A program made the position numbers and the translations under genes. Under the pieces are notes generated by a model that made no database searches, was not told the origin of the DNA, and worked only from the letters and a program-made list of their open reading frames with translations. A DNA stretch of 37,649 nt from a virus (taxonomy: Duplodnaviria; Heunggongvirae; Uroviricota; Caudoviricetes): IMG/VR virus record IMGVR_UViG_2579778631_000021. One strand, 5' to 3'. Positions 1,419-14,897 of the stretch are shown in pieces (position 1 is the stretch's first letter; every line of letters starts with the position of its first letter).

Positions 1419-2489
1419 TTATTTGATTTCAATTTTGTCCCACTCCCTGCCTCTGTCATCACGATACTGTGATGCCATGGTGTCCGACTTATGCCCGAGA
1501 AGATGTTGAGCAAACTTATCGCTTATCTGCTTCTCATAGAGTCTTGCAGACAAACTGCGCAACTCGTGAAAGGTAGGCGGATCCCCTTCGAAGGAAAGAC
1601 CTGATGCTTTTCGTGCGCGCATAAAATACCTTGATACTGTGCCGGATGAAAGCGGTTCACGACGAGTAGATGCAATTATGGTTTCTCCGCCAAGAATCTC
1701 TTTGCATTTATCAAGTGTTTCCTTCATTGATATCCCAAGAGCATCAACATGCAATGTTGTTGGGATGGCAATTTTTACGCCGGTTTTGCTTTGCTCGACA
1801 TAAAGATAGCCATCTACGATATCAGACCACTTCATTTCGCATAAATCACCAACTCGCTGCCCGGTAACAACAGCCAGTTCCATTGCAAGTCTAAGCCAAC
1901 ATGGTGATGATTCTGCTGCTTGATAAATTTTCAGGTATTCGTCAGCCGTAAGTCTTGATCTCCTTACCTCTGATTTTGCTGCGCGAGTGGCAGCGACCGG
2001 GTTTGTTGTTATATGGCCTTCAGCTATTGCCTCTCGGAATGCATCGCTCAGTGTTGATCTGATTAACTTGGCTGACGCCGCCTTGCCCTCGTCTATGTAT
2101 CCATTGAGCATTGCCGCAATTTCTTTTGTGGTGATGTCTTCAAGTGGAGCATCAGGCAGACCCCTCCTTATTGCTTTAATTTTGCTCATGTAATTTATGA
2201 GTGTCTTCTGCTTGATTCCTCTGCTGGCGAGGATTTTTTCGTAGCGATCAAGCCATGAATGTAACGTAACAGAATTATCACTGTTGATTCTCGCTGTCAG
2301 AGGCTTGTGTTTGTGTCCTGAAAATAACTCAATGTTGGCCTGTATAGCTTCAGTGATTGCGATTCGCCTGTCTCGGCCTAATCCAAACTCTTTACCCGTC
2401 CTTGGGTCCCTGTAGCAGTAATATCCATTGTTTCTTATATAAAGGTTAGGGGGTAAATCCCGGCGCTCATGACTTCGCCTTCTTCCCAT
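1419..2489 (-). CDS. int: Tyrosine integrase, lambda Int type
   Basis: 356-aa ORF; N-terminal arm-binding region and C-terminal catalytic motifs (HELRSL...LGH...Y); sequence recalled as essentially lambda Int; adjacent to attL. Confidence 0.95.
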   Translation of the reverse strand: MGRRRSHERRDLPPNLYIRNNGYYCYRDPRTGKEFGLGRDRRIAITEAIQANIELFSGHKHKPLTARINSDNSVTLHSWLDRYEKILASRGIKQKTLINYMSKIKAIRRGLPDAPLEDITTKEIAAMLNGYIDEGKAASAKLIRSTLSDAFREAIAEGHITTNPVAATRAAKSEVRRSRLTADEYLKIYQAAESSPCWLRLAMELAVVTGQRVGDLCEMKWSDIVDGYLYVEQSKTGVKIAIPTTLHVDALGISMKETLDKCKEILGGETIIASTRREPLSSGTVSRYFMRARKASGLSFEGDPPTFHELRSLSARLYEKQISDKFAQHLLGHKSDTMASQYRDDRGREWDKIEIK

Positions 2490-2685
2490 TTCTGATCCTC
2501 TTCAAAAGGCTACCTGTTACTGGTCGATTTAAGTCAACCTTTACCGCTGATTCGTGGAACAGATACTCTCTTCCATCCTTAACCGGAGGAGGGAATATCC
2601 TGCATTCGCGCACCCATCGACGAACTGTTTCAAGGCTTCTTGGGCGCCGCTGGCGTGCGTTCCACTCCTGAAGTGTTAAGTACAT
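2467..2685 (-). CDS. xis: Excisionase Xis
   Basis: 72-aa ORF MYLTLQEWNARQRRPRSLETVRRW... overlapping int start, as in lambda. Confidence 0.9.
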   Translation of the reverse strand: MYLTLQEWNARQRRPRSLETVRRWVRECRIFPPPVKDGREYLFHESAVKVDLNRPVTGSLLKRIRNGKKAKS

Positions 2686-2712
2686 CGCAAAGTCTCCGCA
2701 ATTACACGCAAG

Positions 2713-2732
2713 AAAAAACCGCCATCAGGCGG
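2713..2732 (-). terminator. Hairpin CCGCC-ATCA-GGCGG with T-run on minus strand, between small ORF and xis
   Basis: 5-bp GC stem, 4-nt loop, followed on minus strand by TTTTTTCT; stop codon of upstream ORF lies in the loop. Confidence 0.4.
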
Positions 2733-2892
2733 CTTGGTGTTCTTTCAGTTCTTCAATTCGAATATTGGTTACGTCTGCATGTGCTATCTGCGCCCATATC
2801 ATCCAGTGGTCATAGCAGTCGTTGATGTTCTCTGCTTCGATAACTCTGTTGAATGGCTCTCCATTCCATTCACCTGTCACCCGGAAGTGCAT
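2725..2892 (-). CDS. Small hypothetical protein (55 aa), lambda orf55-like position
   Basis: ATG with GGAG SD 8 nt upstream; translation MHFRVTGEWNGEPFNRVIEAENINDCYDHWMIWAQIAHADVTNIRIEELKEHQAA; below the 60-aa cutoff of the ORF track. Confidence 0.5.
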   Translation of the reverse strand: MHFRVTGEWNGEPFNRVIEAENINDCYDHWMIWAQIAHADVTNIRIEELKEHQAA

Positions 2893-2904
2893 TTATCATC
2901 TCCA

Positions 2905-2929
2905 TAAAACAAAACTCGCCGTAGCGAGT
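2905..2929 (-). terminator. Hairpin ACTCGC-CGTA-GCGAGT followed by TTTTGTTTT on minus strand
   Basis: Perfect 6-bp stem, 4-nt loop, T-rich tract abutting the SD of the 55-aa ORF. Confidence 0.45.
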
Positions 2930-2964
2930 TCAGATAAAAGAAATCCCCGCGAATGCGAGGATTG

Positions 2965-3249
2965 TTATTCATTGCCGATATTCACTTTTATCGCGAACAC
3001 CTTTACCGGTTTATCACCGAAGTGCGGATGTGTGATTGTCTTGATTTCATATCCGTCATACGGGACGTCAATTCTTCGGCTGGAATCGTCGCGCTTCGGA
3101 TATCCCTTCGTGATAATCAGGCGGTCATACTCCCGGAACATAATTCGCTTATTCCAGTAGTCATTACACAGGCGATACTCTTCCGTTTTCTCTCCGCGAA
3201 TCATGGCATCGAAGTATTCACCTTTGACAGCAAGTTGCAGGTTAGCCAT
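2965..3249 (-). CDS. Hypothetical protein, possible ASCH/PUA-like domain
   Basis: Start ATG at 3249 (MANLQLAVKGEYFDAMIRGEKTEEYR) with GGAGG SD; G-x-K-x-x-E-x-R motif reminiscent of ASCH; family assignment is a guess. Confidence 0.4.
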   Translation of the reverse strand: MANLQLAVKGEYFDAMIRGEKTEEYRLCNDYWNKRIMFREYDRLIITKGYPKRDDSSRRIDVPYDGYEIKTITHPHFGDKPVKVFAIKVNIGNE

Positions 3250-3509
3250 TACCGCACCTCCAGTCTCCATACCGCCTGACCAATCCGGCTGGCATAGGTA
3301 TCTTTGGATACTGCTCCGTCTTTAGCCAGCTCCATAAGAATTTTGCGCAAATCTGCCGAACGCCATTCTTCATCAGGAAATTCCTTCTCCATTGCCAACC
3401 GCAGATTCCAGGTTGCTATCGTGAATGGATATTCCCCGCCGAGAGCTTTCTCTTGCAGGGCAGCACGGGAACGCATCACCTGCAAAACCTTCTCTTTTAC
3501 ATCCATCAT
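3249..3509 (-). CDS. Hypothetical phage protein (86 aa)
   Basis: Start MMDVKEKVLQ with GGAGG SD; start overlaps stop of upstream gene (ATGA). Confidence 0.4.
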   Translation of the reverse strand: MMDVKEKVLQVMRSRAALQEKALGGEYPFTIATWNLRLAMEKEFPDEEWRSADLRKILMELAKDGAVSKDTYASRIGQAVWRLEVR

Positions 3510-3895
3510 TTTGCCTCCTGCGGCGGTTCTGGTAGCGGCATCCAGTGTGATGGTATCCACGACGCACCAGGTATTACCCACCCATCATTAGCGTCAGGAT
3601 GCCCCGGGATGTAAGTCGCCCATTTCATTCGCCAGTCACCTTTCCTGTCAAACTCCCTGGCAACAAGAACGGCTGTTTTGGTATCCGGCATTCGCTCACT
3701 ACAGCTTATCCAGCCATCCGGAGTTACCGGATAGTTGCCCGACATCTCGTTCAACTTGTAAGTCTGGCTTACAAGTTCGGCTTCCAGCGATGCCAGTGCA
3801 ATCCGTGCCAGTTCCATTTGTTCGCCACGGGTAAGCCCGTTTTCAAGCGGGGATTTAATGAACAATTCGATACGTTCTTTAGTGATAGTGCTCAT
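3506..3895 (-). CDS. DUF551-like phage protein
   Basis: Start MSTITKERIELF with AGGAG SD; C-terminal W-rich segment ending SHWMPLPEPP typical of DUF551. Confidence 0.55.
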   Translation of the reverse strand: MSTITKERIELFIKSPLENGLTRGEQMELARIALASLEAELVSQTYKLNEMSGNYPVTPDGWISCSERMPDTKTAVLVAREFDRKGDWRMKWATYIPGHPDANDGWVIPGASWIPSHWMPLPEPPQEAK

Positions 3896-3896
3896 A

Positions 3897-4451
3897 TCAC
3901 TCTCCTTTGATGCGAATGCCTGCGGCGCGCTCGGCTTCACTTTGTTCCCAAAACCACTTGTGAAGCTCCATAAGCTTTTCGTCAATCGGTGCATATTTGC
4001 GATTAAAGTAGGCCTGAGCATCTTTCTCAGATTCGTCCGGCAATTCGCCAGGGCCAAACAGTGTGTTATAAATCCATGCCAGTCCGCTCTTAGCGTCGCC
4101 AGTTGCCTGCCATTCGATAATGGCAGCCTGCATGACCAGAATGTTTTTCCCGATTAACAGGTCAAGTTCTTTGTACCGGTTGCGGATGTATGCATTCTCG
4201 CTTTGTAATTTTGCGTTGCGCTTCTCTGCTGCTTCCAGCTCAACACGCAGCTTCCCTACCGTTAGCGCAATATCCTCGTTCTCCTGATCGCGGCTTTTGA
4301 TGTATTGCAGGTTTCTTTCCCGTTCATCCAGCATTGCCAGCACAATCGATGGTGTTACCAGCTCATGGAAAAGGTCCGCGTCAAATCCCCAGTCGTCATG
4401 CATTGCCTGCTCTGCCGCCTCACGCAGTGCCTGATGGTCAATTTTGCTCAC
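3897..4451 (-). CDS. Ead/Ea22-like protein
   Basis: 184-aa ORF MSKIDHQALREAAEQA... with central coiled-coil; resembles Ea22-family proteins of lambdoid b2-region; recalled similarity only. Confidence 0.45.
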   Translation of the reverse strand: MSKIDHQALREAAEQAMHDDWGFDADLFHELVTPSIVLAMLDERERNLQYIKSRDQENEDIALTVGKLRVELEAAEKRNAKLQSENAYIRNRYKELDLLIGKNILVMQAAIIEWQATGDAKSGLAWIYNTLFGPGELPDESEKDAQAYFNRKYAPIDEKLMELHKWFWEQSEAERAAGIRIKGE

Positions 4452-8928: not shown

Positions 8929-8956
8929 AAAAAATTGCCCTCACACTGGAGGGCAA
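8929..8956 (-). terminator. Rho-independent terminator on minus strand (tL1-like) upstream of recombination genes
   Basis: 8-bp stem TTGCCCTC/GAGGGCAA, 6-nt loop, followed on minus strand by 6-7 T; abuts SD of 322-aa gene. Confidence 0.5.
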
Positions 8957-9168: not shown

Positions 9169-9750
9169 ATGAACAACTCATGGTGGCAGGAACTAATGCA
9201 TTTTTTCCTGCAAGGAATGACACTTAAACAGTTGATTCATATGCTAATCATCCTAATCATATTGATTATTGTTATGCCTGTAAGCGTAAAAGAATGGATA
9301 AACCTGCATAATCCAGAAATCCTTCCTCATTACTGGATGTATTACATCCTGTTGTTTTGCGTTAGCTATGTGCTTAACGGCGTTGTTAATTCCGCTTATC
9401 ACGCTGTGACTGAAAGAATTGAGATATTCGCTGCTCAGAAGCGCAAATCTAAAGAAGAGAAATACGTGCAAGATTTGTTTGATTCGTTAACTCTTGGAGA
9501 AAGAGCGTATTTGGCATTCGCTGTAGCCGCTAATAACCAGCTAAAGACAGAAAAGGGAAGCCCTGAAGCAATCTCATTGCTCGAAAAAGGGCTTCTTATT
9601 CGGGTACCTTCTGCTACTGGATATCCTGAAATCGACCGTTTTGTTATCCCGGAACGCTATAGAAATGAGTGCTACATTAGGTTTGCTGGGAAGAAAGACA
9701 GTCTTATGGATGAACTTATCGCTCAGGATAAGCATGGCAAAAACAAGTAA
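9169..9750 (+). CDS. SieB-like superinfection exclusion membrane protein
   Basis: 193-aa ORF on opposite strand to pL operon, AT-rich, N-terminal hydrophobic segments; position and size as for lambdoid sieB; recalled similarity only. Confidence 0.45.
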   Translation: MNNSWWQELMHFFLQGMTLKQLIHMLIILIILIIVMPVSVKEWINLHNPEILPHYWMYYILLFCVSYVLNGVVNSAYHAVTERIEIFAAQKRKSKEEKYVQDLFDSLTLGERAYLAFAVAANNQLKTEKGSPEAISLLEKGLLIRVPSATGYPEIDRFVIPERYRNECYIRFAGKKDSLMDELIAQDKHGKNK

Positions 9751-9766
9751 TTAGCAAATTAATTTA

Positions 9767-10039
9767 TCATCTCGCCGTCAGTTGTTTTGATTTCCGGTAG
9801 CCTGCCGCGTAAATGGCTACGTTTGGCAGGCAAATACTTCCACTGCATTCATCTGCCTTCTTGCAGCGAAGGCTTCCGAGTGATGCTGCTTTGTCTGCTC
9901 TGACGCAACCAGAGAGCTTTAGCGCAATTTTTCGCGCCAGTCGCTGTTCTTGCATTGCCTGCTCACGTTGAGCCTGTCTGCGTGCTCTGCGGCGATTTCT
10001 GGCGTTATCGTCAGCCAGATATGTAATGACTACTGCCAT
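9767..10039 (-). CDS. N-like transcription antiterminator
   Basis: First gene downstream of pL and nutL; arginine-rich motif NARNRRRARRQAQREQ near N-terminus; GGAGG SD. Confidence 0.6.
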   Translation of the reverse strand: MAVVITYLADDNARNRRRARRQAQREQAMQEQRLARKIALKLSGCVRADKAASLGSLRCKKADECSGSICLPNVAIYAAGYRKSKQLTAR

Positions 10040-10147
10040 GTTGACCTCCGATGATTGACTTTGGCGGTGACGCGCCGGGTGCTTATCTTCCGGTTGCCGT
10101 CGTGCAGCTGCACTTCACGTCACCCCAAAGCCAACTACTCTTTGGTT

Positions 10148-10187
10148 CCCGCATTTCGGCGGGACAATCCCATCAATGTTAAAGAGC
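10148..10187 (-). promoter_or_regulatory. nutL (boxA GCTCTTTAACA + boxB hairpin CCCGC-CGAAAT-GCGGG on minus strand)
   Basis: boxA close to CGCTCTTTAACA consensus at 10177-10187 (minus); boxB hairpin 10148-10163 identical to the boxB at nutR. Confidence 0.6.
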
Positions 10188-10233
10188 CTGCCAATCTGTT
10201 CCGTTTGGCTACCAGCGTCCTGCTGATGGCTAA

Positions 10234-10277
10234 AGAATACTGTAGGTATTTTATTGTGTAAATACCCGAGGTATTTA
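10234..10277 (-). promoter_or_regulatory. pL promoter with OL operators
   Basis: Minus strand -35 TTTACA (10257-10262), 17-nt spacer, -10 TATTCT (10234-10239); inverted repeats AATACTGTAGGTATT (10236-10250) and AAATACCCGAGGTATTT (10260-10276). Confidence 0.55.
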
Positions 10278-10406
10278 TTTTTGGTGAAATAATGATAAGC
10301 AAATGAATACAAAGGATATTTATTTTTTCGGTGTCTGCTTGTTCAGTGCTTTTTATGCGGGATATGTGAAGTGGATCCCGATAGCTATTGCTGCCGGGAT
10401 TATGGG

Positions 10407-10775
10407 TTAGTCAGCGAAGGTTAAGACGAGAATTACCTTAATGATGTCTGCTACAACAGACACGGCCATAGATAAACCAAAGACGATCCAAGCCATAGAG
10501 ATGTCTTCACTACCATCGTATAGAGTTCCGTAATCACTGGTGTAAGGCGTAAATGTCGCGCCTTGATACAATAGGTATAAGCTTGATCCATAGAGGATAA
10601 ATGCAGATATCCCTTGTATTGCCATGATCACCAGAATCATGAAACGAGCTGATCTATGCGCCCAAGCCTGGCTTATTTTTTCTGATAGAGATTTCGCAAT
10701 AAAAGCATGCGCTAAGCCGTAAATTGTTGAGATTGCCAACATCCCCAAAAAGCTTGCTATAGCGGTTCCAACCAT
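10407..10775 (-). CDS. Small polytopic membrane protein in rexAB position, co-transcribed with cI
   Basis: ATG at 10775 with AAGGGG SD (TTG at 10796 overlaps cI stop); about 122 aa with 3-4 hydrophobic helices; lies between cI and OL. Confidence 0.6.
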   Translation of the reverse strand: MVGTAIASFLGMLAISTIYGLAHAFIAKSLSEKISQAWAHRSARFMILVIMAIQGISAFILYGSSLYLLYQGATFTPYTSDYGTLYDGSEDISMAWIVFGLSMAVSVVADIIKVILVLTFAD

Positions 10776-10792
10776 AATCGCCCCTTGCGTGA

Positions 10793-11509
10793 TCAAACCA
10801 GCCTTAGTTTTGTCTCAATTGCAACGCCTATAATCTTGCAGTTTCCATTGATTGGCACGAGAGGCCATGCAGGATTAAGTCCCTTGAGGTATTTATTTCC
10901 GCCGTCGATTATCAGCTTCTTGAATGTTGCTTCGTTAGAGTCAGAAAGTTTTGCTATGACCAAGCTGCCGTTGATCGCCTCCCTTCCGGTATCGAAAAGA
11001 ACGAATGTTCCCTCTGGAATGCTTAACCCAACCGGTGCCGTCATTGAATCACCTTCCACTTTAAGCCAGAACGCATTACCTTGAATATGCGCGTCAGACT
11101 CAAGCCAAACATCTATGTCTTTAATGGTGTATGGTTCGCATGCTTCACACCACGAGCCAGCCTGGATACTGCTTAACACCGGATACCTCTTTCCTGCTCT
11201 GTATTCCCCTGCATACCTTACGTTGGCATCGCTCTTAAGGCTTTCTGCCTGTTCTGCAACCTTGGCAGCAATTGACTGGCTAAAATCAGCAATTGAGACT
11301 TGCAACAATCGTGCAAAACCAGATGCAACCTCAACGTTTAGCGCGTTTCTGCCATTAAGATAATGCCCTACCGCTCCTTGGGTGATACCCAGTTCATCAG
11401 CGATTGAGTATTGGGTTATTCCCAATTCTTTCTTTTTTGACTCATACAAAGCCTTAAGACGCTTAGCGTCTTCGAGCTGTTCTGTCGTCAGTGATTTTTT
11501 ATTTTCCAT
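10793..11509 (-). CDS. cI: CI repressor (HTH N-terminus, S24 LexA-like autocleavage C-terminus)
   Basis: 238 aa; N-terminus MENKKSLTTEQLEDAKRLKALYESKKKELGITQ resembles lambda cI; C-terminal GDSM and FKKL catalytic Ser/Lys motifs. Confidence 0.9.
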   Translation of the reverse strand: MENKKSLTTEQLEDAKRLKALYESKKKELGITQYSIADELGITQGAVGHYLNGRNALNVEVASGFARLLQVSIADFSQSIAAKVAEQAESLKSDANVRYAGEYRAGKRYPVLSSIQAGSWCEACEPYTIKDIDVWLESDAHIQGNAFWLKVEGDSMTAPVGLSIPEGTFVLFDTGREAINGSLVIAKLSDSNEATFKKLIIDGGNKYLKGLNPAWPLVPINGNCKIIGVAIETKLRLV

Positions 11510-11544
11510 AGCTTAATTCTAATAGCTAAGGTACTTAAACTAAA

Positions 11545-11586
11545 AATACCCTAAGTATTGATTGCTTTGAATACCTGTAGTATTCT
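11545..11586. promoter_or_regulatory. OR operators with pR (and probable pRM on opposite strand)
   Basis: Inverted repeats AATACCCTAAGTATT (11545-11559) and GAATACCTGTAGTATTC (11569-11585); pR -35 TTGATT (11558-11563), -10 TATTCT (11581-11586); minus-strand TAGAAT close to cI ATG suggests near-leaderless pRM. Confidence 0.6.
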
Positions 11587-11615
11587 TTGTTCATGGTTAA
11601 TAACGGAGAGTGCAT

Positions 11616-11810
11616 ATGATTCGAATGACACTTGCCGATTACGCCAAAATCCATGGACAGGCTAAAGCAGCCAGTGACTTTGGTGTAATCCAGTGCGCTA
11701 TCAGCAAGGCCATTCTGGCAGGCCGTAACATCATGGTTACGGTAAAGCCTGATGGCAGTGTGATTGGAGAGGAAGTTCGTCCTTTCCCAAGCAACAAGAA
11801 AAACAAATAG
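11616..11810 (+). CDS. cro: Cro repressor
   Basis: [62 protein letters not shown] strongly resembles lambda Cro; GGAGAG SD. Confidence 0.85.
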
Positions 11811-11816
11811 TAACAC

Positions 11817-11859
11817 CGCTCTTTAACAGTCATGGTCATCATTCCCGCCGAAATGCGGG
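11817..11859 (+). promoter_or_regulatory. nutR (boxA CGCTCTTTAACA + boxB CCCGC-CGAAAT-GCGGG), followed by tR1-like hairpin
   Basis: boxA 11817-11828, boxB 11844-11859; downstream hairpin GCGCAT-ACGTTG-ATGCGC then T-rich tract. Confidence 0.6.
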
Positions 11860-11918
11860 AATACAACGCGCATACGTTGATGCGCATAACTTCTTATTTG
11901 TTAAGGAAATACTTACAT

Positions 11919-12197
11919 ATGGAACTTACAAGTACTCGCAAGAAAGCGAATGCAATTACAAGCAACATCCTGAATCGAATTGCTGTACGTGGTCAGCGAA
12001 AGGTTGCTGATGCATTAGGGATCAATGAATCGCAAATTTCGCGATGGAAAGACAGCTTTATCCCAAAGATGGCCATGCTTCTGGCTGTACTGGAGTGGGG
12101 TGTTGAAGACGAGGAGTTGGCGGAACTGGCTAAGAAAGTAGCCAGAATGCTGACAAAAGAAAAAGCCCCGAAGAACGGCGAATTCTTCGAGGCCTGA
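11919..12197 (+). CDS. cII: CII transcriptional activator
   Basis: 92 aa; KSQISRWKDSFIPKMAMLLAVLEWGV motif nearly as in lambda CII. Confidence 0.85.
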   Translation: MELTSTRKKANAITSNILNRIAVRGQRKVADALGINESQISRWKDSFIPKMAMLLAVLEWGVEDEELAELAKKVARMLTKEKAPKNGEFFEA

Positions 12198-12231
12198 TGT
12201 AGAAAGACTGGATCAATCCACAGGAGTAATT

Positions 12232-12876
12232 ATGACATACGAAAATGACAAATTCCAGGTTCTGAAGAGCATGAAGGTGCCAGATGATTTTAAATCAAAT
12301 GGCTTTGTTTATGTGCTTTCGAATGAGTGCATGCCAGGAATTTATAAGATTGGGATGACTAAGCATTCACCAGAAGTTAGGGCTAAAGAAATTTCAGCCT
12401 CTACTGGCGTTCCTAAGCCATTTAAGGTGATAGCAGCCTTTCATTCAAATAATCCCGCATCAGATGAAAAACTCATTCATAAAGCCTTTGCAAAAGAGAG
12501 GCTTAGTGATAATCGAGAGTTTTTCAAGCTTGAAGATAATGATCTTTCTGAATCTCTAAATGAAATAAGGGCGCTGGTTGGCCCTGAAAGAAATGGCGAG
12601 ACGGCAGAATACGCAATTTACGACTCATTCATTTCTTTTCGCCATGAAAATGAGCTTGATCTTAATGAGGAGCTTATAGAGCAAGGTCTGGGTAGTGTAG
12701 TTGGTCATCTTCCTGCGGTGAAAAATTTCCTTATTCGCGCCGGAATTGCTTACGCGAAGCAACTGATAAGCAAATATAACTCATCGATAGTTATTAATAC
12801 AGATGGCAGTGTGGTGATGGTTAAGTCTCTTGAAGCCCAATGCTTTGATGCGGAGGTTGGAAATGAGCCTGGCTGA
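12232..12876 (+). CDS. T5orf172 (MUG113/GIY-YIG-like) domain protein, moron between cII and O
   Basis: N-terminal GFVYVLSNECMPGIYKIGMTKHSPEVRAKEISASTGVPKPFKV matches the T5orf172 signature; CAGGAG SD; AT-rich codon usage. Confidence 0.6.
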   Translation: MTYENDKFQVLKSMKVPDDFKSNGFVYVLSNECMPGIYKIGMTKHSPEVRAKEISASTGVPKPFKVIAAFHSNNPASDEKLIHKAFAKERLSDNREFFKLEDNDLSESLNEIRALVGPERNGETAEYAIYDSFISFRHENELDLNEELIEQGLGSVVGHLPAVKNFLIRAGIAYAKQLISKYNSSIVINTDGSVVMVKSLEAQCFDAEVGNEPG

Positions 12877-14865: not shown

Positions 14866-14897
14866 AGGCCTGCTGGTAATCGCAGGCCTTTTTATTT
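14866..14897 (+). terminator. tR2-like rho-independent terminator upstream of ninB
   Basis: 8-bp stem AGGCCTGC/GCAGGCCT, 8-nt loop, followed by TTTTTATTT. Confidence 0.6.

Follow-up and report, generated by a model that had tools for sequence, protein, structure and literature searches.

The interval at positions 10148-10330 of the window, by which we mean the whole 37,649-nucleotide stretch of viral DNA analysed here, is very probably the left early control region of a lambdoid phage that is P22-like and carries HK620-type immunity. Homology and co-variation are what point to this function. In the same way, the boxB specificity of its two nut sites appears to match the arginine-rich motif (ARM) of the resident N protein, a reading supported by the natural exchange of N domains among related phages. 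As a whole the window is a mosaic, P22-like Escherichia coli phage or prophage, with HZ41, IME10 and HK620 as nearest relatives.

Positions 9771-12237 of the window are 98.7% identical to coliphage HK620 (GenBank AF335538). The AF335538 record and PMC2629481 both cite Clark et al. 2001, J Mol Biol 311:657. The HK620 record, deposited in 2001, annotates nutL, pL, OL1, OL2, OL3, tIMM, OR1-3, pR, nutR and tR1, all labelled 'putative'. Since the elements discussed here are already in that record, the finding is already known, and the control elements of 10148-10330 are correctly identified but nothing new relative to the HK620 annotation.

Control elements around pL and pR

The gene order N, nutL, pL/OL, hkaS-like ORF, cI, OR/pR, cro, nutR, cII is that of the lambdoid layout, with cI and cro diverging from OR (Table 1). 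HK620 features were transferred to the window by adding 8270 to the locus coordinate, which places HK620 nutL at 10147-10188 and nutR at 11817-11862. No Pfam family was found for the hkaS-like ORF (10407-10796), which may encode a prophage-expressed exclusion or membrane protein. Two further observations concern the surroundings of cII. A strong terminator-like hairpin of 14 pairs followed by a T-run (12163-12195, minus strand) lies antisense to the cII 3' end, at the position of the oop RNA terminator of lambda and P22, and an ORF of 214 aa with T5orf172/MUG113 domains (12232-12876, plus strand) separates cII from the O-like replication gene, a place where HK620 has only the small hkaW.

Table 1. 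Coordinates of genes, operators, promoters, nut sites and terminator-like sites in the window.
Feature	Position	Strand	Basis and remarks
Intrinsic-terminator-like site, leftward transcript	8935-8956	-	terminator scan; past N and past sieB, which points the other way
sieB	9169-9750	+	next to N on its left, as in P22
N-like antiterminator gene, 90 aa	9767-10039	-	ORF list; Pfam PF25694 N_peptide, E 2.1e-15
Long N-leader hairpin	10054-10135	-	fold of 10228->10030; between nutL boxB and N ribosome-binding site
nutL boxB hairpin UCCCGC-CGAAAU-GCGGGA	10147-10164	-	exact match, fold; inside HK620 annotated nutL
nutL boxA GCTCTTTAACA	10177-10187	-	exact match; HK620 nutL feature
pL: -35 TTTACA (10262-10257), 17-nt spacer, -10 TATTCT (10239-10234)	10234-10262	-	promoter scan; HK620 pL maps to 10227-10262
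OL1 AATACTGTAGGTATT	10236-10250		0 mismatches; over pL -10; HK620 OL1 maps to 10235-10251
OL2 AATACCCGAGGTATT	10261-10275		0 mismatches; over pL -35; HK620 OL2 maps to 10260-10276
Candidate third OL operator AATACAAAGGATATT	10306-10320		half-site match at 9/10 positions
hkaS-like ORF, 129 aa, hydrophobic	10407-10796	-	between OL and cI, at the lambda rexB position
cI repressor gene	10793-11509	-	Pfam HTH_3 + Peptidase_S24; HK620 cI
OR3 11521-35 (2 mismatches), OR2 11545-59, OR1 11570-84	11521-11584		pattern search; HK620 OR1-3
pR: TTGATT, 17-nt spacer, TATTCT	11558-63, 11581-86		sequence reading; HK620 pR feature
cro	11610-11810	+	Pfam Cro, E 3.6e-26
nutR: boxA GCTCTTTAACA 11818-28, 15-nt spacer, boxB hairpin 11843-60	11818-11860	+	exact matches, fold; HK620 nutR feature
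cII	11919-12197	+	ORF map
Intrinsic-terminator-like site, rightward transcript	14866-14889	+	terminator scan, ORF map; between replication genes and ninB (lambda tR2 position)

Within the 37.6-kb window the operator pattern AATAC-N5-GTATT is matched exactly four times, always in OL or OR (OL1, OL2, OR2 and OR1). Allowing up to one mismatch gives six matches in the window, five of which are at OL/OR, including 10306-20. The longer form (A/G)AATAC-N5-GTATT(T/C/G) describes six sites, namely OL1, OL2, OR1, OR2, OR3 with two mismatches and the site at 10306-20 with one. Operator centres are spaced 24-25 bp apart both between OL1 and OL2 and along OR1/OR2/OR3, and the 10306 site is 45 bp from OL2. 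The operators overlap the hexamers of both pL and pR. A first-pass annotation, made from the sequence alone, had described a leftward promoter TTTACA-17-TATTCT overlapped by OL half-sites of the same family as those of OR; the promoter scan recovers this promoter, and the pattern is exact at both OL and OR. Both of the OL sites listed in that annotation are present, but the third, at 10306-10320, was absent from its list.

The palindrome at 10306-10320 is kept in all 62 of the 62 related loci that have this OL2. The HK620 record assigns it to the terminator tIMM and annotates OL3 elsewhere, at what corresponds to 10282-10298 in the window. There the best fit to the half-site pattern has mismatches in at least 6 of 10 positions, and on this ground we rejected the annotated site as a third operator. 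The half-site pattern suggests that 10306-10320 is the better OL3 candidate, and the HK620 OL3 annotation probably needs moving.

Both nut sites lie just downstream of their promoters, pL and pR, and each consists of boxA followed by a boxB hairpin, the distance between the two on the transcript being 13 nt at nutL and 15 nt at nutR. The boxB 16-mer CCCGCCGAAATGCGGG occurs in the window as two exact copies, at 10148-10163 (minus strand) and 11844-11859 (plus strand), with no further match at up to two mismatches (shuffle expectation 0.01). Identity between the copies runs one base further 5' and two bases further 3', to a total of 19 nt, TCCCGCCGAAATGCGGGAA. RNA folding gives both copies a 6-bp stem, UCCCGC/GCGGGA, and a 6-nt loop, CGAAAU (nutL dG -10.5 kcal/mol, z -3.7; nutR dG -10.7, z -3.0), and in this loop a C-U mismatch may close a GAAA tetraloop. 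BoxA, GCTCTTTAACA, which we take to be the rrn-type consensus, has its sole exact copies in the window at the two nut sites. Matches to it with up to two mismatches occur at chance level, so that position and orientation are what counts. The boxA and identical boxB pair of the first-pass annotation, for which folding of the stems had been proposed as a check, are thus found as described, with coordinates correct to within one base. A scan of the whole window against Rfam at the gathering threshold returned no family; Rfam apparently has no nut or boxB model, so this null result is uninformative either way.

At the tR1 position, directly past the nutR boxB, stands another hairpin, GCGCAT-N6-ATGCGC (11868-11885, plus strand; dG -9.0, z -2.0), with a U-rich tract behind it; its pairing is kept in variant loci, whose changes are only G-U-compatible. 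The boxB hairpins themselves were considered as intrinsic terminators and rejected, because neither has a U-tract behind it and because they co-vary with the ARM.

Association of boxB with the arginine-rich motif of N

The N protein of the window is a three-part mosaic, composed of an HK620-type ARM segment (residues 1-36), a phi21-like middle (residues 37-64, 96% identical to phi21 N) and a P22/933W-like C-terminus (residues 67-90, about 92-95% identical to 933W/VT2 N), and nearly every combination of these modules occurs among related phages. The ARM proper, NARNRRRARRQAQREQ, spans residues 12-27; in alignment with the ARMs of lambda, P22 and phi21, Ala13, Arg16, Arg20 and Arg21 are invariant across the four ARM types aligned. 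Its core RRRARR is in register with lambda RRRERR, and lambda Trp18 stands opposite Ala28 in the alignment. By analogy with lambda N, the middle and C-terminal segments are predicted to be the NusA- and RNA polymerase-binding parts. Proteins of the N family are disordered when free, and a PDB sequence search with the window N found no relative, only spurious low-complexity matches to RNF168.

The predicted leader hairpin, which separates nutL boxB from the ribosome-binding site of N, has a stem of about 20 bp, and the whole folded segment (10228->10030) has a z of -2.9. Its position is presumably that of the lambda N-leader hairpin, an RNase III site. The 12-mer GGCTTTGGGGTG, just upstream of the leader hairpin and downstream of nutL boxB, is common to the window and lambda nutL.

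The modular structure of N allows the ARM to be separated from the rest of the protein in natural recombinants, which we identified by tblastn. CUS-3 and IME10 N have residues 1-64/66 in common with the window and a phi21/lambda-type C-terminus. HK629 N matches the window N at 98% identity over residues 37-90 and has a phi21-type ARM, and 1H12 N combines the window-type C-terminus with a P22-type ARM. The phages with the HK620-type ARM (the window, HK620, CUS-3 and IME10) carry the window's boxB at both nut sites, those with the phi21-type ARM (DE3/imm21, mEp235, PA28 and HK629) carry phi21 boxBs, HK629 at both nut sites, and those with the P22-type ARM (P22 and 1H12) carry P22 boxBs, 1H12 again at both. 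In all three ARM groups of named phages the boxB type is therefore independent of the N C-terminus that is attached.

The same association is found in a larger set of loci. In IMG/VR, scans that used N of the window, HK629, 1H12 or CUS-3 as query yielded 318 loci, including 23 duplicates that were removed before counting. The loci are not phylogenetically independent, many being near-identical prophages. The cognate boxB was present at nutL in 157 and at nutR in 151 of 160 loci with the HK620-type ARM, in 74 and 71 of 76 with the P22-type ARM, and in 55 and 53 of 55 with the phi21-type ARM. Among about 290 loci a boxB of another type was never found at nutL and was found once at nutR, in a rearranged locus, and each ARM type was combined with two or more types of N C-terminus. 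Where a nut site is missing, the locus is truncated or rearranged, and no intact mismatched system was found among these loci.

Because the nutL boxB sits with the leader and the ARM in a single uninterrupted block of about 250 bp, linkage could account for the association at nutL taken by itself. The situation at nutR is different. Nine unrelated immunity cassettes of 1.1-3.4 kb lie between nutL and nutR in the 151 loci that have the HK620-type ARM and both nut sites, and physical linkage to N cannot explain the association there. The mosaic joint at nutR lies immediately 5' of boxA.

These data also bear on the possibility that the two boxBs are identical through recent duplication, gene conversion or hitch-hiking within mosaic blocks and not through selection for one cognate N. 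All loci with the HK620-type ARM belong to closely related enterobacterial phages, nutL is physically near the ARM, and nutR lies at the margin of a conserved nutR-cII block, as such a history would have it. Identity between the two nut sites is, however, confined to boxA (11 nt) and boxB with its flanks (19 nt), while the spacers between them differ in length (13 against 15 nt) and in sequence. The pairing of ARM and boxB moreover holds across the nine immunity cassettes and two N C-terminal types, with a parallel pairing for the phi21 and P22 types, and in phi21 and P22 the two boxBs are unlike each other and still travel with the ARM. We therefore regard this explanation as very improbable. 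The proposal of the first-pass annotation that a single cognate N-like protein serves both boxBs gains comparative support from the co-variation of ARM and boxB in the named phages and in about 290 loci.

Several of the loci without a regular nutL show where the region has been disrupted. In L003 an IS-like end lies between the nutL position and N (about 530-760) and nutL has been removed. In L052 and L064 an insertion directly follows the boxB position on its 3' side, and in L296 the upstream region has been exchanged as far as the ribosome-binding site. L064 has tandem N genes (2218-4273): an N with a lambda ARM (2516-2848) stands behind a lambda-type nutL, and about 1.1 kb downstream a second N with the HK620-type ARM (4001-4273) is accompanied by a mutated boxB remnant, CCCTCCGAAATGCGGG, at 3626, without boxA. 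An insertion of about 244 nt, located exactly 3' of the nutL boxB in the N leader and absent from the window, recurs in about 20 related loci (L064 3644-3887, L005, L031, L043, L073, L081, L030, L263 and others). Its variants are 85-87% identical to each other, with conserved arms and a variable centre; the insertion has no Rfam match, its MFE z is -0.3 and its covariation term is near 0.

Proposed mechanism and other readings of the nut sites

In the mechanism that we propose, cI dimers would bind the AATAC-N5-GTATT sites, OL1 covering the pL -10 and OL2 the -35, with a probable third site 45 bp further out, and this binding would shut off pL as the OR sites would shut off pR. The derepressed pL would start near 10227, and boxA, about 40 nt downstream, would be available to NusB/NusE. 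BoxB, 13 nt past boxA, would be bound by the arginine-rich N-terminus of N, which is encoded about 110 nt further downstream, and the pL transcript would contain in order boxA, boxB, the long leader hairpin at 10054-10135 and N. With the middle and C-terminal parts of N engaging NusA and RNA polymerase, the modified elongation complex would read through 8956-8935 on the left and, from nutR, through 11868-11885 and 14866-14889. The same N would be expected to act at nutR because the nutR boxB is identical. We infer the binding of N and cI, the dependence on Nus factors and the readthrough of terminators from the N systems of lambda, P22 and phi21 together with the co-variation of ARM and boxB. 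Both terminators named in the first-pass annotation were recovered by the scan as terminator-like sites, at 8956->8935 (minus strand) and 14866-14889 (plus strand). These two sites and the hairpin at 11868-11885 are pattern matches only, and Rho-dependent sites lie outside the prediction.

Antitermination could in principle rest mainly on a boxA of rrn consensus and on host Nus factors; boxB and N would then be dispensable or only modulatory. The boxA of the window, GCTCTTTAACA, presumably of rrn type, is indeed unlike lambda CGCTCTTA. Antitermination in phi21 and P22 is N-dependent, and these phages have the same boxA core, GCTCTTTA(A/C)C, as the window; in addition, hundreds of loci have kept N intact, its ARM conserved, directly downstream. 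Both points speak against this reading, to which we give hardly any credence.

An equally slight chance is left to the suggestion that the identical hairpins are other RNA signals placed after boxA, such as pause or attenuator sites, RNase III or other processing sites, or weak terminators, and do not bind N: the boxB hairpin is stable (dG about -10.5), a further hairpin with a U-rich tract lies past nutR and no Rfam family matched the boxBs, but neither boxB hairpin has a U-run directly behind it, the order boxA, spacer, hairpin, downstream of pL and of pR, is that of a nut site, and in natural recombinants boxB switches together with the N ARM, as a generic processing signal would not.

Binding of boxB by the resident N thus remains our preferred reading, and its wider interest lies in the pairing itself. 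For genome annotation the result has little effect, as the region labels are transferable from HK620. The natural domain swaps speak, on comparative grounds, for the textbook rule under which boxB specificity depends on the ARM alone, and the block of nutL boxB, leader and ARM has remained matched to the distant nutR boxB through many mosaic exchanges. Our search of the openly readable literature (including PMC2629481, PMC11893012 and PMC8022706) found no experimental work on the HK620-type N/boxB pair. Whether the HK620-type ARM NARNRRRARRQAQREQ, which lacks a Trp at the W18 position, and its boxB, with a 6-bp G+C stem and a CGAAAU loop that is maybe a C-U-closed GAAA tetraloop, constitute an experimentally uncharacterised peptide-RNA class, possibly orthogonal to those of lambda, P22 and phi21, highly abundant among E. 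coli prophages and with two nut sites whose boxBs are strictly identical, is a question on which we judge the case evenly balanced. Such an ARM/boxB pair could become another orthogonal RNA-tethering pair beside lambda N, P22 N and phi21 N.

Comparison with HK620, lambda, phi21 and P22

HK620 has the same order of elements as the window (N, nutL, pL, OL, hkaS, cI, OR, pR, cro, nutR, cII), identical boxA and boxB sequences at both nut sites, and an N protein that is 97% identical. By direct alignment both control regions are 99% identical between the two, and the differences, single bases in the centres of OL2 and OR2, the nutR spacer and the loop of the post-nutR hairpin, besides some in the flanks, leave boxA and boxB untouched. 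The central bases of OL2 and OR2 that differ are presumably non-contacted. Outside this region the two diverge. HK620 has hkaQ/hkaP to the left of N, where the window has sieB directly, as do HK140 and P22, and the replication genes of HK620 are O and a P helicase, in contrast to the O-like and DnaC-like genes of the window.

Lambda resembles the window in the succession of an operator-overlapped promoter, boxA, a short spacer, the boxB hairpin, a structured leader and N, and in having an ARM core of the form RRRxRR with a conserved Ala. The first-pass annotation had called for a comparison of boxB with those of lambda, 21 and P22, and the boxB of the window proves to be of a different sequence type from these, with its G+C-rich 6-bp stem and CGAAAU loop. 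In the annotated lambda record nutL has boxA CGCTCTTA, which is shorter than the boxA of the window, and boxB GCCCT-GAAGA-AGGGC, with a 5-bp stem and a 5-nt loop where the window has six of each. The loop of the lambda nutR boxB is GAAAA. The N proteins of lambda and the window are about 27% identical overall, and Trp18 of lambda corresponds to Ala28 of the window. Given the 6-nt loop (5-nt in lambda and P22) and the missing Trp at the W18 position, the lambda mode of recognition is not simply transferable to this pair.

The nut sites of phi21 and P22 are like those of the window in their consensus boxA core GCTCTTTA(A/C)C and unlike them in boxB. In phi21 (DE3/imm21) the boxBs are CTCAACC-TAACC-GTTGAG at nutL and TCACC-TCTAACC-GGGTGA at nutR, and in P22 they are GCGCT-GACAA-AGCGC and CCGCC-GACAA-CGCGG. 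In both phages the nutL boxB thus differs from the nutR boxB, whereas the pair in the window is identical. The same division is seen in the proteins: phi21 N and P22 gp24 differ from the window N in having another ARM, while the C-terminal 24 residues of the window N (LPNVAIYAAGYRKSKQLTAR) are of the P22/933W type.
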